The notes beneath the pieces are model-generated. The model made no database searches. It saw only the letters and a list, made by a program, of their open reading frames with translations, and was not told the origin of the DNA. Shown here in pieces: positions 39,723 to 62,620 of a stretch of 64,000 bases of DNA; within the stretch, counting starts at the first letter, position 1, and the number at the start of each line of letters is the position of its first letter. The stretch is from sequence record SRR20825006_870; one strand, written 5' to 3'. The position numbers and the translations under genes were made by a program.

Positions 39723-41390
39723 TTGACAGCTGAGACCATTTATACCAACGGCAAAATCTACACTGTGGACCCATCCACCCCATGGGTGGAGGCGCTTGCC
39801 GTGGCCAATGGTCAAATTGTTGCCCGCGGCACCAATGCAGATATGGAAGTCTATAGAGGCGCGGGCACGCAGATTGTTGATCTGGGCGGCAAGATGGCCA
39901 TGCCCGGCATTGTGGATGTGCACAACCATATTTTGCTGGGCGGCATGGCAGAGCTTTATGAATTGCGGTTTCCCGGCAGCTTAAACCGGGAAGGCATTTG
40001 CGCACTGGTAAAAGAGGCGGCTGAAAAAGCCGCGCCGGGCGAATGGATCATCGGGGCGCAATTGGGCGCCGACATGAACAATGTGCTCAACAGTTCTGAA
40101 TCGCTGGCCATGTTGGACGCGGCAAGCAATGGGCATCCGGTGCTGCTGCGCGATGAAACCTTCCACAATCGCTGGGTCAATTCCAAAGCCATGGAGCTGG
40201 CGGGCATCACTGAAGATATGCCCAACCCAGAGCAAGGCGAGTTTGGTCGCGATCCAGCTACGGGCAAACTCACCGGCTTTATGATTGAAGCCGCCTCTGG
40301 CGTGGTGGAGCGCGCATTGATCGAGCAAGGTGGCGTAACCCCGGAAATGGGCGTCGCGGCGGTGAAAAAAGCCTTGAATGTGCTCAATGGTTTTGGCGTC
40401 ACGGCCTTTTTGGATGCCGCCTCCATGGAAAATATCATGCAGGCCATTGCCGGGCTTTATGATGAAGGCGGGCTAACCGCATGGGCGGCGTGTGCCATGC
40501 CAGCGGTGGAGCCAACCTTTCTGTTTGGCATTTCCGGCGACGATCTATTCGCTAAGCGCGAGCAATTTCGCCGCCCCCATGTGAAGCCAGATTTTGTAAA
40601 ATTCTTCCTAGATGGTGTGCCGGGCGCAAAAACCGCCGCTTTCCACGATGCCTATCTCGAAGATCCGATCCATGGCTGCTGTTTCCGCGGCGCGACGATG
40701 ATGACCTATCCGGATTTGATCCGCTGGCTGGGCAAATGCGAAGAGCAGAGTTTGGCGGTGAAAATTCACTGCGCGGGCGATGCGGCTGTGTCGCAGGCGT
40801 TAGACGCCATTGATGTGGTGCGCAGTTTTAACGGCCCCACCCATCTGGTGCATCATATCGCCCATGCCAGCTATATCCGCGATGAAGATCTTGCGCGGTT
40901 TGCTGAGCTGAATGTAGCGGCGGACCTGTCACCCATGATCTGGTATCCCACCACCTTTTTGGAGGCCCATAAGCAGGCCATGGGCGAAGAGCGGGCAGAA
41001 AAATTCTGGCCAAACAAGAATATGCAAGAGGCAAATGCCCTCATGGCTGGTGGTTCTGACTGGCCTGTCATCCCAAACCCTAACCCTTGGGATGGCATTG
41101 AGGGGCTAGTGACCCGCGAAAATCCGTCTGGCGCGTTTGAAGGCAAAGCCTTGTGGCGCGAGCAGGCATTGGATTTGGCCAGCGCGGTGGAAATTTTCAC
41201 CCTCAACTCGGCCAAGGCGTTGGGTTTGGACAAGGAGATCGGTTCGCTCGAAGTGGGCAAGTCTGCGGATTTGATCGTGCTGAACCAGAACATTTTCGAC
41301 ATATCACCAAAAAACATTTCTGACACCAAGGTCGACGCCACCTATTTCCAAGGCAAGCTCGTTTTTGAAAGAGCGGTGCACCATGACTAG
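39723..41390 (+). CDS. Amidohydrolase 3 family protein (YtcJ / N-substituted formamide deformylase-like)
   Basis: NGKIYTVD, PGIVDVHNH, H..WVNSKA, VKFFLDG, IHCAGD, HIAH, GSDWP, GSLEVGKSAD; GGAGG RBS before TTG 39723. Confidence 0.88.
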   Translation: MTAETIYTNGKIYTVDPSTPWVEALAVANGQIVARGTNADMEVYRGAGTQIVDLGGKMAMPGIVDVHNHILLGGMAELYELRFPGSLNREGICALVKEAAEKAAPGEWIIGAQLGADMNNVLNSSESLAMLDAASNGHPVLLRDETFHNRWVNSKAMELAGITEDMPNPEQGEFGRDPATGKLTGFMIEAASGVVERALIEQGGVTPEMGVAAVKKALNVLNGFGVTAFLDAASMENIMQAIAGLYDEGGLTAWAACAMPAVEPTFLFGISGDDLFAKREQFRRPHVKPDFVKFFLDGVPGAKTAAFHDAYLEDPIHGCCFRGATMMTYPDLIRWLGKCEEQSLAVKIHCAGDAAVSQALDAIDVVRSFNGPTHLVHHIAHASYIRDEDLARFAELNVAADLSPMIWYPTTFLEAHKQAMGEERAEKFWPNKNMQEANALMAGGSDWPVIPNPNPWDGIEGLVTRENPSGAFEGKALWREQALDLASAVEIFTLNSAKALGLDKEIGSLEVGKSADLIVLNQNIFDISPKNISDTKVDATYFQGKLVFERAVHHD

Positions 41391-42444
41391 CGCGAAGCCC
41401 ATTCCCGTCACGATGGTGACCGGCTTTTTGGGGGCGGGCAAAACCACTTTGCTCAACCATTTGCTGGGCCAGCCCGATTTGGACGGCACCTTGGCGATCA
41501 TCAATGAATTTGGCGAAATCGGCCTCGACCATTTGTTGTTGGAAGTGACCGACGAGCGCATGGCCCTGCTCGACAATGGCTGCGTGTGCTGCACCGTGCG
41601 CGAAGACTTGGTGCAAACCTTGCTGGAGGCGAACAAGAAACGGATCGCAGGCGAACTGAACTTTAACCGAGTAATTTTGGAAACCACGGGCTTGGCCGAT
41701 CCAGCCCCCATTCTACATGCCCTTATGGCGCACCCTGAGTTAGAAGAGCAGTTCGAAATCGAAACCGTGATCAGCCTAGTTGATGCCACATCCGGCGCAC
41801 AAACTTTGCGCACCCACGAGGAAGCCAAAAAACAATTGGCGTGTGCCGACCAAGTGATCCTCACCAAAACAGATATTGCCCGACCAGATCAAACGGCCAG
41901 CACCAAAGGGTTGATTGAAGATCTGAACCCAACCGCGCAATTGCATATTGTGCGCAATGGCGATGTGGCCAGCGCGCAACTCTTCAACCGCGCCTATGGT
42001 ACCAAAAGCCGCGATGCAAAAGATTATGCCGGATGGATGGATGCAGATCATGAGCATCAATGCGATGCCCATTGCGACCATGAACATCACCGCCATGATG
42101 GCATTGCCACCTATGCGTTCACATCTGACCAACCAGTGGATTGGATACTGTTTCGCGAATGGCTCGACAATCTGGCGGCCTTAAAAGGCGCGGACCTTTT
42201 GCGCATGAAAGGCATCGTCAACATCACTGAAGATGCTGATCGCCCCATGGTGGTGCATGGGGTGCAGCATGTTTTTCATCGCCCCAAACAACTCAATAAT
42301 TGGCCTTCGGATGATCGGCGTACCCGCCTGATCTTCATCGTCAAAAATATCACGTTGGACACCATAGAACGCACGCTGATCAAGTTTGCGCAATTGGAGC
42401 CAGCGCGACTTTCAGCGCGAACACTGGGAGGTGCCTCGCACTGA
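41383..42444 (+). CDS. COG0523 / CobW-family metallochaperone GTPase
   Basis: GFLGAGKT, NEFG, GCVCC, ETTGLADP, TKTD, His-rich linker, CobW_C (LLRMKG, HGVQH). Confidence 0.92.
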   Translation: MTSAKPIPVTMVTGFLGAGKTTLLNHLLGQPDLDGTLAIINEFGEIGLDHLLLEVTDERMALLDNGCVCCTVREDLVQTLLEANKKRIAGELNFNRVILETTGLADPAPILHALMAHPELEEQFEIETVISLVDATSGAQTLRTHEEAKKQLACADQVILTKTDIARPDQTASTKGLIEDLNPTAQLHIVRNGDVASAQLFNRAYGTKSRDAKDYAGWMDADHEHQCDAHCDHEHHRHDGIATYAFTSDQPVDWILFREWLDNLAALKGADLLRMKGIVNITEDADRPMVVHGVQHVFHRPKQLNNWPSDDRRTRLIFIVKNITLDTIERTLIKFAQLEPARLSARTLGGASH

Positions 42445-42486
42445 GATAAGACCAAATTCGATTGAACACGGGAGGAACCTAATCGA

Positions 42487-43671
42487 ATGAATAAATTTAT
42501 GAAAATATTGGCGCTTGGCGGCATGGCCAGCCTTGCATCCATGGCCTTCTCTGGCTCCGCGCTGGCAGCAGGCCCCACATGTGAAGATGGTCCCATTCAA
42601 TTGGGCTCTGTCTCTACCGTTACAGGCGTTGTGGATTTCTCTGATGCCCCAAATGCTGCAGAAGCCTACTTCGCACAATTGAACGAAGCAGGCGGCATCA
42701 ATGGTTGTCAGGTTGAATATACTTTGGCCGACGACCGGGGTGACCCGCAGGTTGCGGCACAAGCTGCGCGTGACTTGATCGACAATAAGCAAGTTGTGGC
42801 CTTGGCTGGCGGCGCAAGTCTTCTGGATTGCGCTGTGAATGCGGGCACTTATAACCGCACAGGCGTGTTGAATGTGTCTGGCCTTGGCGTGGATGCAGCG
42901 TGCTTTAACTCGCCATCGGTTGCGCCGGTGAATGTGGGTCCATTTACCCTCACCACCGCGATGCTCTATTACGCCAGTGAAGTGGTGGGTCGCGAAAAAA
43001 TCTGTACCTTCTTCTACATTATCGGCGGCACACAAGAAGCCTATACAAAGGGCGTCACCGATTGGGAAAAGCTGACAGGCAAAAAGTTGCATCTGATGGA
43101 TTTGACCTTGCCAGTGCAGGGCGATTTGACCCCATACGTAATCCGCGCACGTGAAGCTGGTTGCGAAGCCTTGCTGACCAACCAAGTGGAGCCGGGCATT
43201 GTGCAATGGGTCAACACAGCGGAAGCCCAGGGCGTTGAAGGCATTGACTGGTTGTTCCTAGCACCGGGTTATGCCGATGCGGTGGCCAATGCATTGGCGG
43301 ATACAAACCAGCCAGTTTATGTGGGCACCGAATGGGAACCTTACACCATTGAGAGCGAAGCCAACCAAGGTTGGATCGATGTGATGACCAAGGCCGATCT
43401 GCCGCGCACAGCCTTCTCACAAGGCGGCTATTTGGCAGCGCAAGTGATGACCGACGTGATCAAAGGCATTGATGGTCCTGTAACCCGCGAAAGCGTGAAA
43501 CAAGCGCTGGAAAATATGGAACCTCTCTCATATCCAATCGCAGGTACGCCTTATATTTTTGGCAAAGCTGATCGGCACAGCCCCATGCGCGCCACCAAAA
43601 TTATGGCGCTTAAAGATGGCGAGTGGAAAGTGCTGCTCGATGAATGGCTGACATTGCCTGAGCTTGACTAA
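42487..43671 (+). CDS. ABC transporter substrate-binding protein (branched-chain amino acid / LivK type)
   Basis: Signal peptide, LNEAGGING, DDRGDP..A...ARDLI. Confidence 0.88.
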   Translation: MNKFMKILALGGMASLASMAFSGSALAAGPTCEDGPIQLGSVSTVTGVVDFSDAPNAAEAYFAQLNEAGGINGCQVEYTLADDRGDPQVAAQAARDLIDNKQVVALAGGASLLDCAVNAGTYNRTGVLNVSGLGVDAACFNSPSVAPVNVGPFTLTTAMLYYASEVVGREKICTFFYIIGGTQEAYTKGVTDWEKLTGKKLHLMDLTLPVQGDLTPYVIRAREAGCEALLTNQVEPGIVQWVNTAEAQGVEGIDWLFLAPGYADAVANALADTNQPVYVGTEWEPYTIESEANQGWIDVMTKADLPRTAFSQGGYLAAQVMTDVIKGIDGPVTRESVKQALENMEPLSYPIAGTPYIFGKADRHSPMRATKIMALKDGEWKVLLDEWLTLPELD

Positions 43672-43722
43672 GTCAAAAAAGGCCGGGTGATTTCATCCGG
43701 CCTTATTCAAAGGTCCAGACAT

Positions 43723-44592
43723 ATGAATTCACTTTTAACACCGGCTATGGCGGGGCTTTCCGCTGGTGGGGCTTACGCCATTTTGGGCGTATGCGCCATT
43801 TTCACCTATCGATTGGTGGCCGTTGTCAATTTCACCGGAGCCGCTGTGGGGGCATGCGGCACCTTTATTATGGTCGCACTGGTGGAAATGGGCATGCCGC
43901 TTTTTCCCGCCGTGGTGCTGGGCATCGCCGCAGGGGCGCTGGCCGCTCTTTTTGTCGGCTTCATCACCACCATCTGGTTTTCCGGCGCAAATGGCTCGGT
44001 CAAAGCCGCGGTGACTGCTGCGCTGTTGGTGGGCTTTATCGCCCTTGGACTACGCCTGACGGGGGGACAACACCCAAAGCGCTTTCCAGATATTTTGCAG
44101 GGCGCATGGTTGCGCTTGGCAGATGTGCAAATCACCAATGCGTCGATAGCTGCCATCGGACTGGCGATTGTGTTGACCATTGCTGCAGAGCAATTTTTAA
44201 ACCGCACCCGCACTGGGTTAGAGCTGCGGGCCTTATCTGAACGGCCCATGGCTGCGGAATTGCTGGGCATTCGCGTGCGGCTGTTGGCGCTGATTGTTTG
44301 GGCCATTGCAGGGGCGGTGACCGCATTCGCGTTGATGTTGATCGCGCCTTTGCGCTCACCTGATTTCGCGTCTTTGAGCTTGTTGATCGTGCCTGCCCTC
44401 GCGGCGGCGCTGATTGGGGCATTTAAAAGCTTTCGCGCTGCACTGTTTGGCGGGCTCGCCATCGGGATTATTGAAGGCCTTGCCAGCGGATTGGTGGGCC
44501 TAAACCAATACCGTGCGGCAATCCCGTTCATCGTCATCTTACTTGTTCTTTTATGGTCGCAAAGGGAGGCTCGTTGGGATGAATCGCGCTAG
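43723..44592 (+). CDS. Branched-chain amino acid type ABC permease (LivH-like)
   Basis: G.YAI.G, VVNF, TRTG..LRA......AELLGI, AALIG. Confidence 0.88.
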   Translation: MNSLLTPAMAGLSAGGAYAILGVCAIFTYRLVAVVNFTGAAVGACGTFIMVALVEMGMPLFPAVVLGIAAGALAALFVGFITTIWFSGANGSVKAAVTAALLVGFIALGLRLTGGQHPKRFPDILQGAWLRLADVQITNASIAAIGLAIVLTIAAEQFLNRTRTGLELRALSERPMAAELLGIRVRLLALIVWAIAGAVTAFALMLIAPLRSPDFASLSLLIVPALAAALIGAFKSFRAALFGGLAIGIIEGLASGLVGLNQYRAAIPFIVILLVLLWSQREARWDESR

Positions 44593-46303
44593 TCTTCGCG
44601 CCGCTTTTTTCGCGGCTTTATCTATTCTCGTGGCCGGTGGCTTGGTGATTGGGCTATTGCCAAATTATTGGGTCTATCTGATCACCGCCGTGTTTATCCT
44701 CGGCATCGCCCTGCAAAGCTTGGGCATTGTGACAGGACGAACCGGCATGATCTCGCTGTGCCAAATGTCATTCGCAGGCGTTGGCGCGTGGACGGTCGGT
44801 TATCTCAACTTTATCGACTTCCCGGGCGGTTTGCCGCTTTGGCTTTTGCTAGGTGGCCTTGCGGCCCTGCCATTCGGCATCATTATCGGCTTGCCTGCGT
44901 TGCGGCTGCGCGGCATTAATCTGGCAATTGTCACGCTGGGCTTCGCATCCGCTTTTGACGTTGTGCTCGCCACCATCACCTATCCGGGCCAGACCAGTTT
45001 TAAAATGGTCGCCCGCCCGGCAGGCATGGAAGGCGATGTAGGCTATTTCATGTTTGTGATCATGATCTATGCGCTGATCGCTGTGGTGCTGGAATTCCTC
45101 AACCGATCTCGCCTTGGTGCGTCCTGGTTGGCAGTGCGCCATTCTGAACGGGCGGCGGCAGCGCATGGGGTATCCATTCCCACAACCAAGCTGAGCGCTT
45201 TTGCGATTTCAGCCTTTATTGCTGGGGTCGCAGGCGGCTTGTTTGCCGGATATTTGGGCACGCTGGTGGCAGAAAACTTCTCCATGATGCAATCGCTCAC
45301 CTTGTTTGCGGTGGCCACTATGGCGGGCAGTCAGTTTACCCTAGGTGCCATTATTGGCGGGGTGCTGGTCAGCTTGTTCCCTGAATTGTTGCGGCGACTG
45401 AATGTGCCGCAGGATTTCGGCAGCGTGATCTTCGCCGCGGGTGCGGTGCAGGCACTTTCAACGGGTGAAAGCATCAGCGAAACCTTTATGCGTTTGGGCG
45501 GCAAAATAGTGCCGAAAGGCTTGTTGAAACGCGCCAAAGCAAAGACCCATAATCTACCCGCTGCCAAAACATTCGCCAAAGATGTGCCCGCCTTGCAGGT
45601 GCAGGATGTGACCGTGCGGTACGGCAATGTGGTGGCGTCAAACAAAGTCAACTTAACGGTGCCCCAAGGCAAAGTGGTGGGCTTGATCGGCCCGAACGGT
45701 GCGGGCAAATCCACACTTGTGGATGCTATAACGGGCTTTTTGCCAGATTACGAAGGCGATATTCGCTTGGGTGACAAAAGCCTAAATGGTGTTTCCGTTA
45801 CCGCGCGGGCGCGTTTGGGCGTGCGCCGCACATGGCAGACCACCCGCATCGCGCCAGAACTGCAAGTGGGCGAATATATGCGCCTTGCCGCAGGCAGCGA
45901 CCTATCTGACGATGAAGTTGAAGCGGTGTTGGATTGGTTCAACTGCCCGCCAGCAAGCGCACCAATCGCCAGCATTGATGCCGGCACACGGCGCTTGCTT
46001 GATGTGGCAGGTATTGTTGCCGCCCGGCCACCGGTGATCTTGTTGGATGAACCAGCCGCAGGCCAGTCTTACGCCGAAGCAGTGCGCTTGGGTGAGCGAC
46101 TTCGCCAAATCCCAGAAACATTCGGCTCCTCAGTTTTGCTGATTGAGCACGATATGGATTTGGTGCGCTCCGCCTGCGAAGAAGTGACGGTTTTAGACTT
46201 CGGCACGGTGATTGCCCACGGTGCACCCGCCAATGTGTTGGAAACACCGATTGTGCAAAAGGCCTATTTGGGTGTCGACCATGAATTGGAGGCAAGCGCA
46301 TGA
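44579..46303 (+). CDS. Fused ABC permease and ATPase (LivM-LivG-like)
   Basis: G.TG.ISL.Q, PALRLRG..LAIVTL, then GPNGAGKS, LLDEPAAG, LIEHDM; GGGAGG RBS, ATG 44579. Confidence 0.87.
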   Translation: MNRASLRAAFFAALSILVAGGLVIGLLPNYWVYLITAVFILGIALQSLGIVTGRTGMISLCQMSFAGVGAWTVGYLNFIDFPGGLPLWLLLGGLAALPFGIIIGLPALRLRGINLAIVTLGFASAFDVVLATITYPGQTSFKMVARPAGMEGDVGYFMFVIMIYALIAVVLEFLNRSRLGASWLAVRHSERAAAAHGVSIPTTKLSAFAISAFIAGVAGGLFAGYLGTLVAENFSMMQSLTLFAVATMAGSQFTLGAIIGGVLVSLFPELLRRLNVPQDFGSVIFAAGAVQALSTGESISETFMRLGGKIVPKGLLKRAKAKTHNLPAAKTFAKDVPALQVQDVTVRYGNVVASNKVNLTVPQGKVVGLIGPNGAGKSTLVDAITGFLPDYEGDIRLGDKSLNGVSVTARARLGVRRTWQTTRIAPELQVGEYMRLAAGSDLSDDEVEAVLDWFNCPPASAPIASIDAGTRRLLDVAGIVAARPPVILLDEPAAGQSYAEAVRLGERLRQIPETFGSSVLLIEHDMDLVRSACEEVTVLDFGTVIAHGAPANVLETPIVQKAYLGVDHELEASA

Positions 46304-47010
46304 ACGCTCTTGAACTGAACAAAGTGCACATCAAGCGCGGGGATATTCCCATTGTGCATGGGGTGGATATTGTGGCGAAGCCCGGCGAAATCAGCGTGTT
46401 GCTAGGTGCCAATGGTGCGGGCAAAACCACCATTCTGGAAGGCACTTCCGGTGTTATTCCTATTGCCAGTGGCGATATTGTGCTGGAGGGGGCGCAAATG
46501 TGCAAAGCCAGCGCTGGGCACCGCGCTCGGTCCGGCATCGCCCATGTGGAGCAGGGCCGCACCATCTTTGCCGAAATGAGCACTGAGGACAATTTGCGCG
46601 TGGGCCTGCACCCAGAAAGCGGGCTGGAACAAGCCTATGACTTGTTCCCCGAACTGAAAAGCCGCGCCAATGTAAAATCGGCAATGCTTTCGGGCGGCGA
46701 ACAGCAAATGCTGGTCATCGCTAGGGCGCTGCTGGGCAAGCCAAAAGTGGTGTTGATTGACGAAATGTCTGCTGGGTTGGCCCCGGTGGTGGTGGCACGG
46801 CTGATGCAGGCTGTGCGCCTGTTGGCAGATCAGGGCCTTGCCGTGTTGTTGGTGGAACAATTCGCCAATCTCGCATTAGATATTGGCGATCGCGCCTATG
46901 TGCTGCGGCGGGGTGAAGTGGTTTATGATGGCTCATGCGAAATTTTGCGCAATGACCCAGCAATGCTGCACCATCTCTATCTGGGCGATATGGAAAAAGA
47001 CAGCGCCTAA
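46300..47010 (+). CDS. ABC ATPase (LivF-like)
   Basis: GANGAGKT, LFPEL, LSGGEQQML, DE.S.GLAP, LVEQ. Confidence 0.9.
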   Translation: MNALELNKVHIKRGDIPIVHGVDIVAKPGEISVLLGANGAGKTTILEGTSGVIPIASGDIVLEGAQMCKASAGHRARSGIAHVEQGRTIFAEMSTEDNLRVGLHPESGLEQAYDLFPELKSRANVKSAMLSGGEQQMLVIARALLGKPKVVLIDEMSAGLAPVVVARLMQAVRLLADQGLAVLLVEQFANLALDIGDRAYVLRRGEVVYDGSCEILRNDPAMLHHLYLGDMEKDSA

Positions 47011-47017
47011 CCCCCAT

Positions 47018-47051: not shown

Positions 47052-47096
47052 GAAGTTTCCAGCAATGGTGTTGGGGGAAGACAAGCTGGAAAAATA

Positions 47097-53862: not shown

Positions 53863-55326
53863 ATGAAACTGAACGACCCCAAATTGCTCCGCGAAGCCCT
53901 GCCAGTTGCTGGTAAATGGATCGAAACCAGCGATGATATGCTGACGGTCAAAAACCCATCCACCGGCGACATTGTGGGCAAGCTGCCCAAAATTGGCGCT
54001 GAAGAAGTGGAAGAAGCGATTGCCGCTGCGGCCAAAGCGCAAAAGCAATGGGCCAAACGCACCGCAAAAGAGCGGTCACAGATTCTGCGTCGCTGGTTTG
54101 AATTGATGATGGAACATCAGGATGACCTCGCGGCCATTCTGACCCTTGAGCAAGGCAAACCGCTTTCCGAAGCCAAAGGCGAAATCGCCTATGGCGCAAG
54201 CTTTATTGAATGGTTCGCCGAAGAGGCACGCCGCGTTTATGGCGATTTGATCCCGGCGCACCGTACCGATAGCCGCATCATGGTGATGAAGCAGCCCGTT
54301 GGCGTTGTGGCGGCCATCACGCCGTGGAATTTCCCCAATGCCATGATCACCCGCAAAGCCGGACCTGCTTTGGCGGCAGGGTGTGCCATGGTGCTAAAGC
54401 CCGCGTCGCAAACCCCGTTCTCGGCGATTGCATTGGCCGTGCTGGCGGAACGTGCCGGGTTGCCCATGGAATTGTTCTCCGTGGTCACCGGCTCCTCCAA
54501 AACCATTGGCGACACACTGACCGCCAGCGATGTGGTGCGCAAAATCACCTTTACCGGCTCCACGGAAGTGGGGGCGATGCTCTATGAGCAAAGCGCGCCA
54601 ACCATCAAAAAACTCGGCTTGGAATTGGGCGGCAATGCGCCCTTTATTGTGTTCGACGATGCTAATGTGGATGACGCGGTTGACGGAGCAATCATCGCCA
54701 AGTTCCGCAATAATGGCCAGACATGTGTGTGCGCCAATCGGGTTTATGTGCAAGCCAATATCTATGATGAATTTGCGCAAAAGCTGAAAGAAGCATTGCA
54801 GAAACTGAAAACCGGCGATGGATTTGAAGATGATGTGACCTTCGGGCCGCTGATCGATCAGGGCGCGGTTGAAAAGGTGGAAGAACATATTGCGGATGCC
54901 AAGCAAAAGGGCGCTGAAGTTACCTTGGGTGGTCAGCGCCACAGCTTGGGCGGTACCTTCTTTGAACCGACCATCATGACCGGCGTCACCCAAGATATGG
55001 CCGTGGCGACGGAAGAAACTTTTGGTCCCGTTGCGCCGCTGTTCAAGTTCGAGAGCGAAGCCGATGTGGTGCAGATGGCCAATGACACTGAATTTGGCCT
55101 TGCCTCTTATTTCTACGCCAATGACCTCAGCCGCGTTTGGCGCGTCGCTGAGGAATTGGAATATGGCATGGTGGGCGTAAACACCGGGCTTATCTCCACT
55201 GCGGAAGCACCGTTTGGTGGCGTCAAACATTCCGGACTGGGCCGCGAAGGTTCCCACTATGGCTTAGATGAATTTTTAGAACTCAAATATGTCTGCCTCG
55301 GCGGCATCAAGGAAAATGAGGAATAA
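53863..55326 (+). CDS. gabD: NAD(P)-dependent succinate-semialdehyde dehydrogenase
   Basis: EQGKPL.EAKGEI.YGASF.EWFAEE, ITPWNFP.AMITRK, ELGGNAP, KFRNNGQTCVC, EETFGP. Confidence 0.93.
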   Translation: MKLNDPKLLREALPVAGKWIETSDDMLTVKNPSTGDIVGKLPKIGAEEVEEAIAAAAKAQKQWAKRTAKERSQILRRWFELMMEHQDDLAAILTLEQGKPLSEAKGEIAYGASFIEWFAEEARRVYGDLIPAHRTDSRIMVMKQPVGVVAAITPWNFPNAMITRKAGPALAAGCAMVLKPASQTPFSAIALAVLAERAGLPMELFSVVTGSSKTIGDTLTASDVVRKITFTGSTEVGAMLYEQSAPTIKKLGLELGGNAPFIVFDDANVDDAVDGAIIAKFRNNGQTCVCANRVYVQANIYDEFAQKLKEALQKLKTGDGFEDDVTFGPLIDQGAVEKVEEHIADAKQKGAEVTLGGQRHSLGGTFFEPTIMTGVTQDMAVATEETFGPVAPLFKFESEADVVQMANDTEFGLASYFYANDLSRVWRVAEELEYGMVGVNTGLISTAEAPFGGVKHSGLGREGSHYGLDEFLELKYVCLGGIKENEE

Positions 55327-55327
55327 T

Positions 55328-56200
55328 ATGACCAATCGGGCGCGCATCGCCACCTTTAAGCGCAACAACAAGCTGGGCTATGGGGCCATCACCGACACAG
55401 GCGTCGTGGACCTTTCTGCCCGCTTTGGCTCCAAATATGCAGGGTTGCGTGAAGTGATCGAAGCGGGCGCGCTGCCCGAATTGGTTGAGGCCGCAAAAGG
55501 CCAGCCCGACGATTTTGGTTTGGATGAGATTTCCTATGAAATTCCTATTCAGAATCCAGAGAAATTGATTTGCGTGGGCGTTAACTTCCCTAACCGAAAT
55601 GAAGAATATAAGGACGGGCAAGAGGCACCGCCAAACCCGTCACTTTTCATCCGGTTCCCACGCTCCTTCACTGGCCATGACCAAGCTTTGGTCCGCCCTC
55701 ACGCCTCGCCACAATTGGATTATGAAGGCGAGATCGTGTTGGTGATCGGCAAAGGCGGTCGGCACATTGCGGAAGAAGACGCGTTGGACCATGTGGCGGC
55801 CTTGACCTTGTGCAATGAAGGCACAATCCGCGATTGGGTGCGCCATGCCAAGTTCAATGTGACCCAAGGCAAAAACTTTGACGATACGGGCGCCATCGGC
55901 CCTTGGTTGGTGCCGTTTGAAGGCGAAGAGCAATTGGCCGATGTGCGCCTCACCACCAAGGTGAATGGCGAAGTCCGTCAGGATGATCGCACCTCTCGCA
56001 TGATTTTCAGCTTCAGAAAATTGATCAATTATATTTCGACCTTCACCACCTTGGTGCCCGGCGACGTGATCGTGACCGGCACACCAACAGGCGCAGGCGC
56101 ACGGCTTGATCCGCCACAATGGCTGAAGCCCGGTGATGTGATCGAAGTAGAAGCGGAAGGCATTGGCCTGTTGCGTAATACAGTGCGGGATGAGGACTAA
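55328..56200 (+). CDS. Fumarylacetoacetate hydrolase family protein, probably the HpaG-type decarboxylase step
   Basis: CVGVNF, LDYEGE, GKNF, GPW, L.PGDVI.TGTP; inside the hpa operon. Confidence 0.85.
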   Translation: MTNRARIATFKRNNKLGYGAITDTGVVDLSARFGSKYAGLREVIEAGALPELVEAAKGQPDDFGLDEISYEIPIQNPEKLICVGVNFPNRNEEYKDGQEAPPNPSLFIRFPRSFTGHDQALVRPHASPQLDYEGEIVLVIGKGGRHIAEEDALDHVAALTLCNEGTIRDWVRHAKFNVTQGKNFDDTGAIGPWLVPFEGEEQLADVRLTTKVNGEVRQDDRTSRMIFSFRKLINYISTFTTLVPGDVIVTGTPTGAGARLDPPQWLKPGDVIEVEAEGIGLLRNTVRDED

Positions 56201-56201
56201 A

Positions 56202-57005
56202 ATGATCAGTGATGATGATGCCAAAAAGCTGGCGGAAGAACTGCACAATGCCGAGGAAACGCGGCAGCAAATTCCGCTGATCTCCAAGCGGTTTCCGGAG
56301 GCAGAACTGGCCGATGCCTATAAGGTGCAAGATGCCTGGGTGGCCCATAAATATGGGTTGGGGCGTCAACGCATTGGGTGGAAAATTGGCCTCACGTCAA
56401 AAGCCATGCAGGCGGCATTGAACATCACCACGCCCGATTCCGGCGTGTTGTTTGACGATATGGCGTTTGAAGATGGCGCAACAGTGCCAAAAGATCGCTT
56501 TATCCAACCGCGCATTGAAGCGGAAATTGCATTCGTTTTGAAAGCACCACTGAAAGGCGACAAGGTCACCATGTTCGATGTGCTGAACGCCACGGACTAT
56601 GTGATCCCGTCATTGGAGATCTTGGACACGCGGGTTGTGCGCAAAGACGCAGACACAGGCCAGATGCGCACCATTGTCGACACGGTATCAGATAATGCGG
56701 CGAATGCCGGGCTGGTGCTGGGTGGCCGTGCCATGCGGGTTGATGAGGTAGATTTACGTTGGATCGGCGCCATCGTGCAGCGCAATGGCGTGGTGGAAGA
56801 AACTGGCCTTGGCGCAGGCGTGCTCAATCACCCGGCCATGGGCATTGTGTGGCTGGTGAAGCGGCTGGCGCAATTTGACATTGGCTTGGCACGCGGCGAG
56901 ATTGTGCTTTCCGGCTCTTTCATCCGCCCCGTGGAAACCAGCCACGGCGACACCATCATGGCAGACTTCGGCCCCTTGGGCACCGTCAGCACCTACTTCG
57001 AATAA
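56202..57005 (+). CDS. hpaH: 2-oxo-hept-3-ene-1,7-dioate hydratase
   Basis: KIGLTSKAMQ, PD.G.L.DDM, PRIEAE, DT.SDNAANAG, EETGL.AGVLNHPA, LSGSF.RP. Confidence 0.93.
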   Translation: MISDDDAKKLAEELHNAEETRQQIPLISKRFPEAELADAYKVQDAWVAHKYGLGRQRIGWKIGLTSKAMQAALNITTPDSGVLFDDMAFEDGATVPKDRFIQPRIEAEIAFVLKAPLKGDKVTMFDVLNATDYVIPSLEILDTRVVRKDADTGQMRTIVDTVSDNAANAGLVLGGRAMRVDEVDLRWIGAIVQRNGVVEETGLGAGVLNHPAMGIVWLVKRLAQFDIGLARGEIVLSGSFIRPVETSHGDTIMADFGPLGTVSTYFE

Positions 57006-57016
57006 GGAACATCACC

Positions 57017-57820
57017 ATGCCAGCACCCACCAACAAATTTAAAGCCGCCATCCTGAAAGGCGAAAAGCAGATCGGGCTGTGGATGGGCCTCGCCAATGCC
57101 TATACGGCTGAAATTTGCGCCGGGGCAGGCTTTGATTGGCTGGTTATTGATGGCGAACATGCCCCCAATGATCTGCAATCCACTTTGAGCCAATTGCAAG
57201 CTTTGTCCAACTATCCGGTGAACCCAGTGGTGCGGGTGCCGATTGGCGAAACCTGGTTGATCAAACAAGTATTGGACCTTGGGGCGCAAACCGTTTTGGT
57301 ACCCATGGTGGAAAGTGCTGAACAGGCGAAAGAGCTGGTGCGGGCGATTAAATATCCCCCCGCTGGCGTGCGCGGCGTTGGCGCGGCGCTGGCGCGAGCA
57401 TCGCAGTTCAACCGCATTGGCGATTATCTGCAAACGGCAAATGATCAAACCTGCCTGATTGTACAGGTGGAAAGCCAAGTCGGCGTTGAGGCGATCGAAG
57501 AGATCGGTCAGATCGAGGGCGTGGATGGCATTTTTATCGGGCCTGCTGATTTGGCCGCAGATATGGGCTATCTGGGCCGCCCCGGCGAGCAGGTGGTGAA
57601 AGACGCGGTGCTTGATGGCATCGCAAGAATTGTCGCCACAGGCAAAGCCGCAGGCATTTTGAGCGCGGATAAGGCTTTTGCGCGCGCGTGTTTAGACCAA
57701 GGCGCAAGCTTTGTGGCGGTCGGCACAGACGTAACTCTGTTCTCAGGTGCCACCAGCAAATTGGCTGAAGAATTCACTGGTGCGGGCCACGCTGCACCTG
57801 CAGGTGACAAGACCTACTAA
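57017..57820 (+). CDS. hpaI: 4-hydroxy-2-oxoheptanedioate aldolase
   Basis: GFDWL.IDGEHAPND, KQ.LD.GAQT.LVPMV, YPP.G.RGVG, FIGPADL. Confidence 0.93.
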   Translation: MPAPTNKFKAAILKGEKQIGLWMGLANAYTAEICAGAGFDWLVIDGEHAPNDLQSTLSQLQALSNYPVNPVVRVPIGETWLIKQVLDLGAQTVLVPMVESAEQAKELVRAIKYPPAGVRGVGAALARASQFNRIGDYLQTANDQTCLIVQVESQVGVEAIEEIGQIEGVDGIFIGPADLAADMGYLGRPGEQVVKDAVLDGIARIVATGKAAGILSADKAFARACLDQGASFVAVGTDVTLFSGATSKLAEEFTGAGHAAPAGDKTY

Positions 57821-57834
57821 TTTTCTAAAGCAAG

Positions 57835-57859
57835 GCCCTGCCCATCAGATGAGCAGGGC
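57835..57859. terminator. Stem-loop after hpaI
   Basis: GCCCTGCCCATC-A-GATGAGCAGGGC; no clear U-tract. Confidence 0.45.
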
Positions 57860-57876
57860 AAACTTGCACCCATACT

Positions 57877-57895
57877 TTTAACATGTTAAATATAT
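57877..57895. promoter_or_regulatory. Putative HpaR box upstream of the AraC regulator
   Basis: Perfect palindrome TTTAACATGTTAAA plus TATAT; reverse complement matches 50734-50752 at 18 of 19 positions. Confidence 0.65.
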
Positions 57896-58030
57896 AGCTA
57901 GGCAGCTCGACTGTTTAAAAAATACTATGACATGGCGTTGGCCGCTCAACTGGGCAGACAACTGCATGCCACCACAAAGCATAATGAGATCGCGAGTTGC
58001 CGATGAGGGAGTTTTGTTGGAGGAAGTGCC

Positions 58031-58981
58031 ATGCTGATACAACCAGAAACACGCATACAACATGCGGTGAACGATGCGTTTCAACCGCTCGCGCTGGATA
58101 TTTTTGGCTCATTGGTGGTGGGGTTTAACGACGCCGAGCCGCAAAGTGCTGAGCTGCACACGGCAAACTTTGGCGCTTGCCGATTGTCGCACATCACGGC
58201 AAGTGCCCATTCGGTTGATGGCGCGCGCGCGGTGCGTCGTTCGTTCGACCCGGACGCCATTAAGCTGATTTTGCAAAATGAGGGCCATTCACGCCTGAAA
58301 CAAGCAAATGTTGAACTGGAGTTGGTACCCGGCAGCTGGGTGGCCTATGATCCAACCAAATCCTATAGCTTGGATAACCTATCGCCCGTGAAGCAATTGA
58401 TCCTTCAATTGCCGCGCCATAATATTCCAGCCGCCGCATTGCAGCAATTGATGCGCCCCAACAAGCTGGATATTGCCGAACGGAGCTTGCACAAAATTTT
58501 GTACACCATGATGTCTTCAGCATTGGACCAAGTGGATGGATTAGATGCCGAAGGGCAATCTGGTGTAGGCGATGCGCTGCTCCATTTGGCCAAAACATTG
58601 GTGCTGCGCATCGATCCAGAGGATTTGGAGCGCTCTGCCGTTTCCCTCAAAACCCTGCGCATGCGGGTTAAAGCCTATATCGAAACCAATCTGTCACGAT
58701 CAGATTTGGACATTGCCGAACTGGCACAAAAAATGGGGTGTTCGCGCCGCTATTTGTTCCGCGCTTTCGAGCAAGACGAAACCACCCCATCAGAATTTTT
58801 GTGGGGGCTTCGGCTGGATAAATCTTTGGAACGTTTGTCTTCGCCCAAATTTGCAGGAGCATCAATTTCGGAGATCGCGTTCTCTTGCGGCTTTTCATCA
58901 AGTTCGCACTTTTCACGCGCCTTCAGAAAACGCTTTGATATTTCACCAAGCGAAGCGCGGCATGCCAAAACGTTGAATTAA
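58031..58981 (+). CDS. AraC family transcriptional activator, FeaR-like
   Basis: N-terminal ligand domain (KLILQ..G.....Q......L.PG....YD...Y), C-terminal double HTH (SRRYL.R.F, ISEIAFSCGFSSSSHFSRAFR). Confidence 0.88.
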   Translation: MLIQPETRIQHAVNDAFQPLALDIFGSLVVGFNDAEPQSAELHTANFGACRLSHITASAHSVDGARAVRRSFDPDAIKLILQNEGHSRLKQANVELELVPGSWVAYDPTKSYSLDNLSPVKQLILQLPRHNIPAAALQQLMRPNKLDIAERSLHKILYTMMSSALDQVDGLDAEGQSGVGDALLHLAKTLVLRIDPEDLERSAVSLKTLRMRVKAYIETNLSRSDLDIAELAQKMGCSRRYLFRAFEQDETTPSEFLWGLRLDKSLERLSSPKFAGASISEIAFSCGFSSSSHFSRAFRKRFDISPSEARHAKTLN

Positions 58982-59003
58982 AAAAGGGGCCAATTGGCCC
59001 CTT
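58981..59003. terminator. Terminator between convergent genes
   Basis: AAA-AAGGGGCC-AATT-GGCCCCTT. Confidence 0.72.
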
Positions 59004-59025
59004 AATTCTTGGTCTATGATTGCCC

Positions 59026-59418
59026 CTAAGGCTTTAAAGCATCTGCCACCAATTTTGTGTCGGCAAACTGTTCAAACTTGACCACTTTGCCGTCCTCAAC
59101 TTCCCACACATGGGTGACACGCGCTTCAAAGCTTTTGCCTGTTGATTTGGCCGTGGCTGCATAAAGACCGACACCCACGACATGGGAACCAGCGTCTAGC
59201 AATTGGTTGAGGGTGAAGGTGAAATTATCGAACAGATCGCCAAGGGCGAAGAACACGTTCTTCTTCACTTCCTCCGGCCCAATATAGGTGCCAGCGCACG
59301 GAAAACCCGCAGCTTCAGTCCAGGCACAATCATCGGCAAGTGGGGCCAGCATGCCCTCCAGATCACCCCGATCACTGGCGGCATAATGGGCTTTTACAAT
59401 CTCATAAGCTTCAGACAT
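59026..59418 (-). CDS. Nuclear transport factor 2 / SnoaL-like protein
   Basis: Y.A..RGD, W.EA.GFP..GTY.G, TGKSF.A...HVW...DGK...FEQ..DT. Confidence 0.88.
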   Translation of the reverse strand: MSEAYEIVKAHYAASDRGDLEGMLAPLADDCAWTEAAGFPCAGTYIGPEEVKKNVFFALGDLFDNFTFTLNQLLDAGSHVVGVGLYAATAKSTGKSFEARVTHVWEVEDGKVVKFEQFADTKLVADALKP

Positions 59419-59427
59419 TAGGTCTCC

Positions 59428-60216
59428 TTAAACCGGCTCTTGGCCCGGCAGATAGTAGGTCATGGATGCTTTGCGGATGAATGCGCCGGCCGGGTTGTTG
59501 GCAATGGAGCCGTCGCCCTCAATGCCCAAAAATTTGCCGGTAGAGCGCATTTCATTAAAGTCGTGGAAGAAGGTGGAGGCCACCGGGATCAAATATTCCC
59601 GGAAGGTGAAAATATATTGGCCTTCATCAAACTTATAAGTGGTCGCCAAATCCACATCCCCATGGCCACGCTGCACGCCCACCAAATTCTGCCACGCATA
59701 GCGCGTGGACGAGAGATAGGTGTGTTCATACACATGGTTGGGGCTATAGGTGTAATGCGCCCGCAAGCCGATCAAATCGCGCGTTTCTGCGGGCTCTGGT
59801 CCGCTAATCTCTACGCCATCCAATGTGCCGGGGCGGAAAATCTGTTCCACCTGTGGGTCGCCCGCTGCTTCTTCAACACTGCGAATATGCGCGTAGATGG
59901 AGAGCACACGACCTGTGCTTACATTGATGATCACCGTGTCCGCATCTTTGGGGCGATCTGCAAAGACCATATCGACAAAATAGGTGTTGGGCGCCAAATT
60001 GATGACCTCACACCAATCGCTGCCGCTTTGGCCATTTTCTTGCCAATCCACCTTGTCTTTTGCGGTGAATTTTAGGGCCAGTTTGCGCCCATCATTAAAG
60101 CTGATGGCAAAATCCTTGCCGATCAACTCGTCGGTTGTGGGCAGGCGATTATGATCAATGCCAGCGGCAAAATCATCGTAATTCTTCCAGTCTGCGGGTC
60201 TCGCTTGTTCGCTCAT
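59428..60216 (-). CDS. moaF: MoaF family protein (related to the Klebsiella monoamine-regulon MoaF)
   Basis: T.DLIG.R..Y.YSP..VYEH.YL....YAWQ.L.G..RG..DVD, Y.F.FRE..IP signature; downstream of an SDR as in moaEF. Confidence 0.78.
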   Translation of the reverse strand: MSEQARPADWKNYDDFAAGIDHNRLPTTDELIGKDFAISFNDGRKLALKFTAKDKVDWQENGQSGSDWCEVINLAPNTYFVDMVFADRPKDADTVIINVSTGRVLSIYAHIRSVEEAAGDPQVEQIFRPGTLDGVEISGPEPAETRDLIGLRAHYTYSPNHVYEHTYLSSTRYAWQNLVGVQRGHGDVDLATTYKFDEGQYIFTFREYLIPVASTFFHDFNEMRSTGKFLGIEGDGSIANNPAGAFIRKASMTYYLPGQEPV

Positions 60217-60227
60217 TTGTTCCTCCT

Positions 60228-61016
60228 CTATTCAACAAATGCCAATGTGGGCAGATCAACCGTGCCAGCGCCGCCATCGACGGTGACGATGGCGCCATTC
60301 ATCATCGACGCCTCCGCACTGGCCAAAAAGCAGATCACATTGGAGATTTCTTCCGGTGTGGCCGCGCGCCCCAAAGGCACGTCTTTCGTGACCAGTTGAT
60401 AGGCCTCATCCACTGAGTTCAGCCCGTGCTTTTCAATCAGCACTTGCATTTGATCGTCAGCCATGGCGGTGCGCACCCAACCGGGGCATACCGTGTTGGT
60501 GCGGACGCCCTTGCGGCCATAATCGCGCGCCAGCGATTTCGCTAGACCAATCAAACCATGCTTCATGGTCACATAGCCCGCCGCATCCGGCCCGGCAAAC
60601 AGCCCAGCAATGGAGGCCACAGCCACAATGTTGCCTTTGGCTTCAATCAGGGCGGGCAGAGCAGCGCGGGCCGTTACAAACGCCGTGTCTAGATTTGCGC
60701 GGGTGGCGTTCGCCCACGTCTCATCGCTCATGGAGATGGTGGGGCCAACACCATGGCCACCCGCATTGGCGATCAAAATATCCAAATGGCCATATTGTTT
60801 CACAAGGCTCTGGACCACTTGGCCCATCGCGTCTGCGTCCGCTGCATCTGCCGCATAGATATCTGCCTCAATATCAGCAGCCACAGCTTCCAATGGTTCT
60901 TTGCGGCGACCCACCAAAGCCACCTTGCCGCCTTCAGCGGCGATCCGCTTGGCAACCTCGGCCCCAATGCCGGTGCCGCCACCCGTGATCAGCGCAACTT
61001 TATCTTTAAATCTCAT
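60228..61016 (-). CDS. Short-chain dehydrogenase/reductase (in the position of Klebsiella MoaE)
   Basis: TGGGTGIG, ANAG, YVTMK, CPGWVRTAMAD; GAGGAGG RBS supports ATG 61016. Confidence 0.9.
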   Translation of the reverse strand: MRFKDKVALITGGGTGIGAEVAKRIAAEGGKVALVGRRKEPLEAVAADIEADIYAADAADADAMGQVVQSLVKQYGHLDILIANAGGHGVGPTISMSDETWANATRANLDTAFVTARAALPALIEAKGNIVAVASIAGLFAGPDAAGYVTMKHGLIGLAKSLARDYGRKGVRTNTVCPGWVRTAMADDQMQVLIEKHGLNSVDEAYQLVTKDVPLGRAATPEEISNVICFLASAEASMMNGAIVTVDGGAGTVDLPTLAFVE

Positions 61017-61213
61017 CTGTTCCTCCTCGGTCCGATCAGAGCCTAGGTTTGGCGAGATCGCGTGTCGCGCCCCGGTGCGCATTCAAGATTGATCAGGAGT
61101 GCAAAGGCCGCCCTAAGCCGCGTCAACCCCTTGATAGCCGGGGCTTTGACGGGTCAAAAATCAGATTAATCATCGCGCAATCCCAAATGCGCGTACCCTG
61201 AGGAGGAGGAAAA

Positions 61214-62620
61214 ATGAGTTCTTACGGCCTAGTGATCAATGGTGAAAAAATCAGCACGGCAGACTATCTCGATGTCTTAAACCCGGCAGACCAATCAGTG
61301 GTGGGGCAGATGCCCCTTGCCAGCACGGATCAACTTGATGACGCAGTGCGCGCCGCCCAAGCGGCCTTTCTGGCGTGGCGTGATTTGGATGACAAAGAAC
61401 GGCAGAAATTGTGCAATCAATTGGCAGATAAGCTGGAAGCGCACCATGAGGAATTGGCCAAACTGATCACCGCCGAACAGGGCAAGCCACTTGTGCAATT
61501 GGGTTCACGCTTTGAGCTGGATGGCGCCATCGGCTGGAGCCGCGCGACTGCCGCGCTGGACATGCCAATCGAAGTGATTGAAGAAACTCCTGATGGTCGT
61601 GTCGAACTGCACCGCAAACCCATTGGCGTTGTGGGCTCCATTACCCCATGGAACTATCCTGTGATGATCGGGTGCTGGCACATCATCCCGGCCTTGCGGG
61701 CGGGCAACACGGTGGTGATTAAACCGTCGCCGCTCACCCCGCTTTCCACTTTGCGAATGGTCGAACTATTCAATGAAGTTTTGCCCAAAGGCGTTTTGAA
61801 CGCGGTGACGGGCGACGACCAATTGGCTGCTGCCATGTCTGCCCACCCTGGCTTCAACAAAATGGTATTCACCGGCTCAACCGCCACGGGCAAAAAGATC
61901 ATGGCATCGGCGGTGGATAGCTTGAAACGCTTAACGTTGGAACTGGGGGGCAATGATGCTGGGATTGTGCTGCCTGATGCTGACCCGAAACAAGTGGCCG
62001 AAGGCCTGTTTTGGGGCGCGTTCCTGAACAATGGGCAGACCTGTGCGGCGCTTAAACGACTCTATGTCCATGCGAATATTTATGATGCAGTGTGCACCGA
62101 AATGGCGGCCATTGCGCAAAATGTAAAAACCGGACCGGGCATGGAAGAAGACAGTGTGTTCGGCCCCATCCAAAACCGCAATCAATTTGAAAAAGTCAAA
62201 GCTTTGGTGGACGATGCTAAGGCGCGTGGTGCGCGCATTTTAACGGGTGGCGAGCCAATGGCGGGGGAGGGCAATTTTTATCCCATCACGCTGGTGGCGG
62301 ACATTGAGCAAGATGCACGGTTGGTGGATGAAGAACAGTTTGGCCCGGCTCTGCCCATCGTCAAATATCACGATATAGACGAAGCGGTGAAGATGGCCAA
62401 CGCATCTCCCATGGGGCTAGGCGGTTCAGTTTGGTCGAGCGACAAAGCCAAAGCCAAACAAATCGCTAGTCGGCTCGAATGCGGATCTGTCTGGATCAAC
62501 AATCACGGGGCCATTCAACCCAACGCGCCCTTCGGTGGCGTCAAGCAATCGGGCATCGGCCTTGAATTCGGCATGGAAGGCCTCAAAGAGTTCACGGTTA
62601 CCCAAACCGTGTTTGTTTAA
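61214..62620 (+). CDS. NAD-dependent aldehyde dehydrogenase; possibly arylacetaldehyde dehydrogenase (from context)
   Basis: EQGKP, ITPWNYP, FTGSTATG, TLELGGND, NNGQTC, EEQFGP, PFGG.KQSG. Confidence 0.9.
   Translation: MSSYGLVINGEKISTADYLDVLNPADQSVVGQMPLASTDQLDDAVRAAQAAFLAWRDLDDKERQKLCNQLADKLEAHHEELAKLITAEQGKPLVQLGSRFELDGAIGWSRATAALDMPIEVIEETPDGRVELHRKPIGVVGSITPWNYPVMIGCWHIIPALRAGNTVVIKPSPLTPLSTLRMVELFNEVLPKGVLNAVTGDDQLAAAMSAHPGFNKMVFTGSTATGKKIMASAVDSLKRLTLELGGNDAGIVLPDADPKQVAEGLFWGAFLNNGQTCAALKRLYVHANIYDAVCTEMAAIAQNVKTGPGMEEDSVFGPIQNRNQFEKVKALVDDAKARGARILTGGEPMAGEGNFYPITLVADIEQDARLVDEEQFGPALPIVKYHDIDEAVKMANASPMGLGGSVWSSDKAKAKQIASRLECGSVWINNHGAIQPNAPFGGVKQSGIGLEFGMEGLKEFTVTQTVFV

Follow-up and report, generated by a model that had tools for sequence, protein, structure and literature searches.

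Which compounds feed the homoprotocatechuate (3,4-dihydroxyphenylacetate, HPC) cleavage operon found in sequence record SRR20825006_870, and do the uncharacterised genes around it belong to the same pathway? The stretch analysed here, called the window throughout, comprises 64,000 nucleotides from a marine, Maritalea-like member of the Devosiaceae, and its region from 39,723 to 62,620 is a composite catabolic island. The hpa ring-cleavage genes of this island are preceded by an operon encoding a class-III aminotransferase (AT) and two short-chain dehydrogenases/reductases (SDR1 and SDR2) and, further upstream, by genes for an amidohydrolase (Amh3), a CobW-type GTPase and an ATP-binding cassette (ABC) importer; they are followed by a FeaR-like AraC regulator gene, an SDR3-MoaF-SnoaL unit and an aldehyde dehydrogenase gene. 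What is new in this analysis is the prediction, made from operator sequences, that the HpaR regulon includes AT-SDR1-SDR2 and the feaR-like gene, together with the set of conserved companions that the AT module has in relatives. As a general model, the flanking units probably feed aromatic amines into HPC breakdown, a reading to which we give slightly better than even confidence. Breakdown of biogenic aromatic amines through HPC is known with amine oxidases and HpaBC, whereas here genes for uncharacterised enzymes fall within the predicted HpaR regulon.

A shared palindrome connects the flanks to the ring-cleavage genes. The sequence TTAACAYGTKAA (TTAA-N4-TTAA) lies in the intergenic regions 5′ of hpaF, the AT gene and the feaR-like gene, and a search allowing up to one mismatch finds three sites in the 64-kb window, all of them in these three promoter regions. 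The count corresponds to four strand matches against 0.09 expected, a number reached by none of 100 shuffles. The predicted operator before AT, TTAACGTGTGAA (47098-47109), occupies the -35/-10 spacer of a promoter-like site (47087-47116), that before hpaF, TTAACACGTTAA (50740-50751), abuts the -10 element of a promoter-like site, and the palindrome search places the third, TTAACATGTTAA (57878-57889), before the feaR-like gene. PMC7180172 reports DNase footprinting of Yersinia pseudotuberculosis HpaR on TTAA-N4-TTAA, with one site overlapping the -10 element, and calls this operator similar to that of E. coli W; the boxes in the window have the same TTAA-N4-TTAA architecture as given there. The presence of one HpaR-type operator at AT-SDR1-SDR2, at the feaR-like gene and at hpa suggests that HpaR represses all three and that they would be released together with the ring-cleavage genes.

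Conservation of the box was followed in 80 loci carrying AT orthologs (69-99% identity), each taken together with flanks of up to 10 kb and with the window proteins mapped on, and in the genomes of relatives, including the nearest genome used (G001; 3.5 Mb, 98% complete, with 27% of the window's sampled words in common), a second genome of the window's genus (G152) and one from another genus of the same family (G332). Between hpaR and hpaF the box is present in G332, G152, G008, G166 and L061; in L078 one lies just outside hpaF. It also stands 5′ of the AT operon in L011 and G332, of Amh3 in G332 and of hpaB in G008. All 80 AT loci together, 1.6 Mb, hold 32 boxes. A box is located 63-163 bp upstream of each of the 20 FeaR-like genes found, which amounts to about three lineages since 18 of these genes are Mesorhizobium-type kin. 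Genome-wide, the exact boxes of G332 (four of four distinct sites) and G008 (two of two) fall inside the island. The five exact sites of G001 comprise the three known from the window, one before a LigB-type HPC dioxygenase gene and one inside a BamA-like gene.

Other conserved sequence accompanies the box before AT. A second stretch, TTGACAG ... GTTTTGCAAcCCTG (47110-47150), lies just 3′ of it and is shared with L011 and G332 (alignment A1); it may be another regulator's site. We rejected the idea that the conserved TTTGCAA 3′ of the AT box is a sigma-54-like element, as its spacing varies between genomes in the alignment. A comparison of the SDR3/aldehyde dehydrogenase and MFS/Amh3 intergenic regions with each other and with orthologous intergenic regions revealed no convincing shared FeaR-type motif.

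The hpa core itself is ordinary and well defined. Hidden Markov model scans (NCBIfam, Pfam) covered 59 open reading frames (ORFs) of the window, 27 at 35.7-63.7 kb and 32 elsewhere, and recovered every gene named in an earlier first-pass annotation where it had been placed. The products HpaR, HpaE, HpaD, HpaH and HpaI all exceed their NCBIfam equivalog cut-offs. The MarR-type repressor gene hpaR (50213-50647, negative strand) scores 170.5 against a cut-off of 121.2 (TIGR02337), and the meta-cleavage operon hpaF-hpaE-hpaD-gabD-hpaG-hpaH-hpaI (50718-57820, positive strand), assigned by NCBIfam and Pfam family matches, ends before a hairpin at 57835-57859. Scores within the operon are 784.6 for HpaE (cut-off 638.35), 418.6 for HpaD (321.4), 413.7 for HpaH (351.5), 382.3 for HpaI (368.8) and 733.1 for the succinic semialdehyde dehydrogenase GabD (TIGR01780, 646.35). 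HpaF (50718-51173, positive strand) matches Pfam CHMI at 163.3 against 26.5 and the equivalog NF011605 at 89.7 against 215; from the intergenic sequence its start is likely the ATG at 50775. HpaG is one FAH-domain protein of 303 amino acids that scores 171.6 on TIGR02303, under the cut-off of 276.4. Relatives likewise have a single hpaG gene, whereas HpaG is a two-domain protein in E. coli and hpaG1 and hpaG2 are listed for Pseudomonas putida U. The first-pass annotation had described the operon as complete, a description that needs the qualification that there is only this one HpaG. Together, hpaR and hpaFED-gabD-hpaGHI would convert HPC by extradiol cleavage into pyruvate and succinate. G001 additionally encodes a second, stand-alone HPC 2,3-dioxygenase of the LigB/E. 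coli type (TIGR02298, 470.7 against 315.95), at L107:3096-3965 (contig C1, about 1.58 Mb), with an HpaR-type box upstream.

Transcription units in the flanks were delimited from ORF overlaps, intergenic sequence and hairpins. The AT-SDR1-SDR2 unit (47262-50199, positive strand) begins with AT (47262-48656, positive strand), a pyridoxal phosphate (PLP)-dependent aminotransferase of the glutamate-1-semialdehyde (GSA) aminomutase-like PRK07046 subfamily (NF005453, 608.7 against a cut-off of 425) in which the PLP lysine of the GKAIAGG motif is present. Its nearest solved structure is an uncharacterised "probable aminotransferase" (5ykr, 502.8 bits), and farther relatives are glutamate-1-semialdehyde aminomutases and beta-amino-acid transaminases. 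SDR1 and SDR2 (48656-50199, positive strand; NCBIfam, Pfam) overlap AT and form one operon with it. Upstream, the genes for Amh3, the CobW-type GTPase, a substrate-binding protein (SBP), LivH, LivMG and LivF make up a unit of their own (39723-47010, positive strand), followed by a terminator-like hairpin of 13 pairs (47023-47051) that divides livF from the AT operon into separate transcription units.

Amh3 (39723-41390, positive strand; 555 amino acids) is a YtcJ-like member of the Amidohydro_3 metallohydrolases, as judged by its domain (PF07969, 284.7 bits) and its metal ligands, with a predicted hydrolase activity. The translation contains an HxH motif (VDVHNH), KFFLDG and a later GSDW, along with downstream histidine and aspartate residues, so that the metal ligands of the superfamily are kept. 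Among solved structures it comes closest to hydrolases that are themselves uncharacterised (3igh, 106 bits), and homologs carry only generic names. The next gene (41365-42444, positive strand) encodes a COG0523/CobW-type GTPase (Pfam cobW 154.6 and CobW_C 74.9 bits) and comes after Amh3 in 26 of the 28 Amh3-bearing loci. A P-loop, a CxCC motif and a histidine-rich segment are hallmarks of COG0523 metallochaperones, and the translation has a P-loop GAGKTT, GCVCC and the histidine-rich stretch DADHEHQCDAHCDHEHHRHD; it is likely a metallochaperone by these features, with a score on the ZigA equivalog of 120.6, under the cut-off of 600. The importer, assigned by NCBIfam and Pfam matches, consists of a Peripla_BP_6 binding protein (42487-43671), which lacks a close or informative match among solved structures (36 bits at best), a LivH-like permease (43687-44592), a fused LivM-LivG permease and ATPase in a 596-amino-acid ORF (44513-46303), a fusion kept in 25 of the 80 loci, and LivF (46300-47010), all on the positive strand. 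Directly upstream of Amh3, the segment 35761-39555 encodes an O-methyltransferase with a dimerisation domain, a second, shorter Amidohydro_3 protein (448 amino acids, 24-31% identical to Amh3, HxH motif kept) and a major facilitator superfamily (MFS) transporter.

On the other side of hpa, the FeaR-like AraC regulator gene (58031-58981, positive strand) is followed by a bidirectional hairpin (58984-59003). Its product contains the Pfam domains AraC_binding_2 and HTH_18 and has FeaR as its best model (NF007243, 124.2, under the cut-off of 199). The aldehyde dehydrogenase encoded at 61214-62620 on the positive strand is a candidate arylacetaldehyde dehydrogenase by its NCBIfam match and solved relatives: it scores 403.8 on the StyD model, under the cut-off of 850, and its closest structures are the unnamed 8yen (424 bits) and then phenylacetaldehyde dehydrogenase 4o5h (342 bits). 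With these scores, neither regulator nor dehydrogenase is an equivalog. Orthologs of the dehydrogenase are found in L011 (72% identity) and G332 (65%). Between regulator and dehydrogenase lies the SDR3-MoaF-SnoaL unit (59026-61082, negative strand; Pfam), made up of SnoaL (59026-59418), MoaF (59428-60216) and SDR3 (60228-61082), also on the negative strand; the sole solved relative of MoaF is the uncharacterised 4q51. A TetR gene on the negative strand lies beyond the dehydrogenase.

The composition of the flanking units is reproduced to different degrees across the 80 AT loci, in which counts of neighbour-ORF clusters are lower bounds since simple ORF calling overlooks genes in GC-rich loci. 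SDR1 follows AT in 74 loci and SDR2 does so in 70. Amh3 occurs in 28 loci, 26 have CobW and as many have SBP, and 25 have the three ABC membrane and ATPase genes. The series AT-SDR1-SDR2-Amh3-CobW-ABC forms an apparent one-strand operon in 25-28 of the 80 loci, and in Mesorhizobium-type loci the Amh3, CobW, SBP and ABC genes stand directly after SDR2 on the same strand. Twenty loci have a FeaR-like gene (at least 40% identity), six have MoaF and SnoaL and five have SDR3, and the SDR3-MoaF-SnoaL genes adjoin FeaR-like genes in L011, G332 and five Mesorhizobium loci. Recurrent partners of AT that have no counterpart in the window are a PuuC-like aldehyde dehydrogenase (ALDH-u) directly before AT in 48 loci, only 35% identical to the dehydrogenase at 61214, and a second class-III aminotransferase, of subfamily PRK07481 (AT2), in 44, along with an IclR regulator (40 loci), UPF0261 (37) and a HAD hydrolase (36). 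The triad of UPF0261 (an ATP-binding family), HAD and the PRK07481 aminotransferase, with IclR, adjoins the AT module in 36-44 of the 80 loci, for example at L013:1190-4502 and L105:4078-12851. A copper amine oxidase cluster lies beside the AT module in 21 of the 80 loci (a lower bound), of Bradyrhizobium type.

At the level of whole genomes, AT and HpaD occur together. HpaD exceeds its cut-off in 54 of 401 genomes of an even order-wide sample, including seven of seven with an AT ortholog (at least 70% identity) against 47 of the 394 others, and in six of these seven AT-positive genomes it lies on the contig of AT, 4-42 kb away. The window's own family gives three of three AT-positive against two of 11 AT-negative genomes. 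Among AT-bearing genomes searched from the synteny set (L010-L059), HpaD was found in 46 of 50, a proportion that partly reflects taxonomy and to that extent weakens the case for a link, as HpaD is widespread in Mesorhizobium and Bradyrhizobium with or without AT, and related genomes do not count as independent observations. A paralogous AT group (42-47% identity, 53 genomes), mostly in genomes without HpaD, was not counted as orthologous. A phylum-wide sample of 401 genomes returned AT at E ≤ 1e-135 in six, all of them Hyphomicrobiales already included in the order sample, and so provides no independent lineage test.

The island as a whole is also carried by relatives. The AT protein is 99% identical to its ortholog in locus L010, and contigs from seawater RNA libraries (two runs of one study), 94-95% identical to the window, span 43001-62655 almost continuously with the gene order preserved, so that the island is also present in a close relative. 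As evidence of expression these contigs were set aside, as their depth is flat across genes on both strands and looks like DNA carry-over or whole-region assembly. G332 has all parts within about 45 kb in rearranged order: AraC-HpaB-HpaC, hpaR, hpaFED, an aromatic-L-amino-acid-decarboxylase-like (AADC-like) gene, gabD, hpaGHI, Amh3-CobW-ABC and AT2-HAD-UPF0261-IclR, then ALDH-u-AT-SDR1-SDR2, the ortholog of the 61214 dehydrogenase, a second ABC system, the FeaR-like gene and SnoaL-MoaF-SDR3. The same modules surround hpa in other arrangements in G008, G166 and L078, each with HpaB and a flavin reductase. The AADC-like gene directly follows hpaD inside the hpa operon in both G332 (L092:14078-15508) and G152 (L098:1399-2808), with 68% mutual identity; the AADC-like gene of G001 is elsewhere in its genome (L099:1324-2748) and is 57% identical to that of G152.

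The enzymes expected at the head of the pathway are the next consideration. HpaB, a flavin reductase and an amine oxidase are all lacking among the 59 scanned ORFs, in agreement with the first-pass annotation, which had seen neither hpaBC nor an amine oxidase in the window. The picture extends to the genome of the relative G001 for HpaB (no match to TIGR02309, TIGR02310 or the HpaB_N domain PF11794 at 98% completeness) and for copper amine oxidase (no match to PF01179; tryptophan tryptophylquinone (TTQ) and quinohemoprotein amine dehydrogenases were not searched for), and HpaB_N has no match in G152 either. If no 4-hydroxyphenylacetate 3-hydroxylase is present, only substrates already bearing the catechol, of the dopamine type or derived from 3,4-dihydroxyphenylalanine (DOPA), could enter. 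The lack of HpaB in G001 and G152, the second HPC dioxygenase and the AADC-like genes are consistent with such catechol-level entry.

The predicted HpaR regulon and the companions of the AT module, which include a decarboxylase, an amine oxidase, HpaBC and aromatic-type regulators, point to aromatic-amine metabolism upstream of HPC. In the proposed flow, the Liv-type ABC system would import an aromatic nitrogen compound, and the YtcJ-like amidohydrolase, supplied with metal by the neighbouring COG0523 GTPase, would hydrolyse any conjugate. AT would then act as a PLP enzyme to deaminate the resulting arylethylamine to the arylacetaldehyde, which the dehydrogenase at 61214 may oxidise to HPC under the FeaR-like activator, with the SDRs interconverting the reactive aldehyde and alcohol or acting on a side-chain hydroxyl. 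We infer the substrate, the roles of the flanking enzymes (N-deacylation and the transamination of dopamine by AT rather than AT2 included) and the direction of flow from gene content and context.

Several observations weigh against this model, in addition to the taxonomic share in the HpaD count. Within 10 kb of AT, hpa structural genes are missing from 76 of the 80 loci, the exceptions being L010, L015, L061 and L078. The first-pass annotation had named the occurrence of flanking orthologs independently of hpa clusters as an observation that would speak against its proposal; locally such independence is what was found, however the two are linked at the genome level and in their predicted regulation. 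The tie to aromatic amines that it proposed retains the shared HpaR-type operator, the co-occurrence of AT with HpaD, the rearranged synteny, the AADC-like genes and the copper amine oxidase cluster on its side, with the local separation from hpa standing against it. No box was found 5′ of Amh3 or of the dehydrogenase gene at 61214 in the window, and a reversed-pattern control gave 14 genome-wide matches in G001 against seven for the box, so that in this genome the positions of the sites are informative and not their number. The islands of all four annotated relatives (G332, G008, G166 and L078) contain HpaBC, which argues that the module is not catechol-specific in general. The negative result for copper amine oxidase in G001 does not extend to the flavin-dependent family, for which this genome encodes one PF01593 protein (442 amino acids) without an equivalog match, and the genome-wide negatives refer to relatives, G001 and G152 for HpaB and G001 for copper amine oxidase. 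The subfamilies of AT, Amh3, MoaF and SBP contain no member with a characterised substrate. Finally, G152 has hpa and the AADC-like gene but no AT ortholog, with AT2 next to hpa instead.

This last arrangement suggests another division of labour, which we consider unlikely but credible: AT2, an omega-transaminase, would carry out the arylethylamine step with its module (ALDH-u, UPF0261, HAD and IclR), while AT-SDR1-SDR2 and the amidohydrolase and ABC genes would serve another, related class of substrates. In G152, genes for AT2, IclR, TctABC, ALDH-u and UPF0261 lie around the hpa operon, and the same AT2 module is encoded in G001, on another contig than the island (C1:1252-1261 kb), so AT2 may be the real arylethylamine transaminase. 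A candidate class for AT would then be beta-hydroxylated arylethylamines such as noradrenaline and octopamine, with AT as a PLP lyase or transaminase and the SDRs acting on the benzylic hydroxyl. This would fit the GSA-aminomutase-like branch of AT, which includes enzymes acting on non-alpha amines, the two SDRs as fixed partners of AT (74 and 70 of 80 loci) and the frequency of AT2, UPF0261 and HAD clusters at AT loci (44, 37 and 36 of 80, as lower bounds). However, AT gives no family-level lyase signal, as the PbfA model matches AT2 (262 bits against a cut-off of 525) and is not among the top matches of AT; UPF0261, HAD and AT2 are not found locally in the window, and the roles of both aminotransferases are read from sequence. 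That the flanks degrade a non-aromatic amine or amide (an amino alcohol, polyamine, beta-amino acid or amino-acid amide) as mere neighbours of hpa, the box being promoter reuse or chance, is improbable. The 76 loci without nearby hpa genes would agree with it, as would the resemblance of ALDH-u to PuuC (557 bits, under the cut-off of 850), the amino acids and amides that are the usual cargo of Liv-type ABC systems, and the lack of genome-wide enrichment of the box number in G001. It fits poorly, however, with a box kept at orthologous AT and feaR promoters across genera whose proteins are 66-78% identical, with the confinement of all exact boxes of the G332 and G008 genomes to the island, with HpaD accompanying AT in 46 of 50 and seven of seven genomes, and with companions that comprise FeaR-like and PcaR/PobR-like IclR regulators, an AADC-like gene, copper amine oxidase and HpaBC. 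A role of AT-SDR1-SDR2 downstream of ring cleavage would account for the shared regulation with hpa and need no part in an upper pathway: the succinic semialdehyde released by the aldolase could be buffered by amination to γ-aminobutyrate (GABA) and by reduction to 4-hydroxybutyrate. The operator before AT, a pathway that ends in succinic semialdehyde with gabD inside the hpa operon, and the relatedness of AT to glutamate-1-semialdehyde enzymes are in line with this idea, yet we regard it as very improbable, given that in 25-28 of the 80 loci AT apparently shares an operon with the genes for the amidohydrolase, the COG0523 protein and the ABC importer, that in 48 loci, mostly far from hpa, it comes after an aldehyde dehydrogenase gene, and that it is not of the GabT type (77-84 bits on GABA transaminase models).

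A more specific form of the aromatic-amine model is rather doubtful, and would have wider consequences. The HpaR-controlled AT-SDR1-SDR2 and the amidohydrolase, COG0523 and ABC genes, joined in relatives by UPF0261-HAD-AT2, could constitute an undescribed, oxidase-free route for catecholamines and their N-acyl conjugates in marine and rhizosphere Hyphomicrobiales. Candidate substrates would be N-acetyldopamine from arthropod cuticle and amines of the noradrenaline and octopamine type; the GSA-aminomutase-like AT would yield the arylacetaldehyde by transamination or by elimination from a beta-hydroxy amine, with the benzylic hydroxyl or the aldehyde left to the two SDRs. Searches of the full-text literature, of incomplete coverage, returned no description of a transaminase-initiated gene cluster for tyramine or dopamine and nothing relevant on 5YKR, PA4088 or MoaF. 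If true, this specific form would assign PRK07046 aminotransferases, this YtcJ clade, MoaF and UPF0261 their first physiological role. The general aromatic-amine model, should it hold, would already define an oxidase-free entry for catechol-type amines and suggest testable substrates for several functionally uncharacterised families that are widespread in Mesorhizobium, Bradyrhizobium and Devosiaceae. It would also make dopamine- or DOPA-derived compounds likely sources of carbon and nitrogen for bacteria of seawater and the rhizosphere.

Elsewhere in the window, a sugar-type cluster (5455-18517) encodes a fused class-II aldolase-SDR, a SorC-type regulator, an IF-2B/MtnA-like isomerase and an APH-family kinase, as well as a sugar ABC system, RbsD/FucU, a split transketolase and a RuBisCO-like protein (a weak match, 60 bits). 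A Mrr-type restriction endonuclease is encoded beside a 1059-amino-acid Eco57I/MmeI-like fused methylase-endonuclease at 220-4298, and a biotin transporter module, BioY-ECF ATPase-CbiQ, at 18662-20500.

Among known systems, the island can be set beside the 3,4-dihydroxyphenylacetate catabolon of Pseudomonas putida U, which Arcos et al. reportedly described in 2010 with its tyn and hpa genes. Both have a peripheral route for biogenic amines such as tyramine and dopamine, proposed in the present case, that converges on HPC, and a meta operon repressed by HpaR, predicted in the present case. The island differs in that no amine oxidase or HpaBC was found (window ORFs; HpaB and copper amine oxidase in G001; HpaB in G152), in that the candidate deaminase is a class-III aminotransferase with two SDRs, in the amidohydrolase, COG0523 GTPase and ABC importer attached to it, and in its single-domain HpaG. 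The tynA-feaB-feaR system of E. coli is an amine catabolism system with TynA and FeaR. As in that system, an AraC-type regulator, with FeaR as its best model, is encoded near an aldehyde dehydrogenase of the aryl/amino-aldehyde group, however TynA is lacking here and the feaR-like gene is itself preceded by an HpaR-type box. With the HpaR regulon of E. coli W and Y. pseudotuberculosis (PMC7180172), the island shares a MarR-type HpaR beside the meta operon and TTAA-N4-TTAA at the -10 element; to this regulon the predicted one adds the aminotransferase-SDR operon, the FeaR-like gene and, in G001, the LigB-type HPC dioxygenase.

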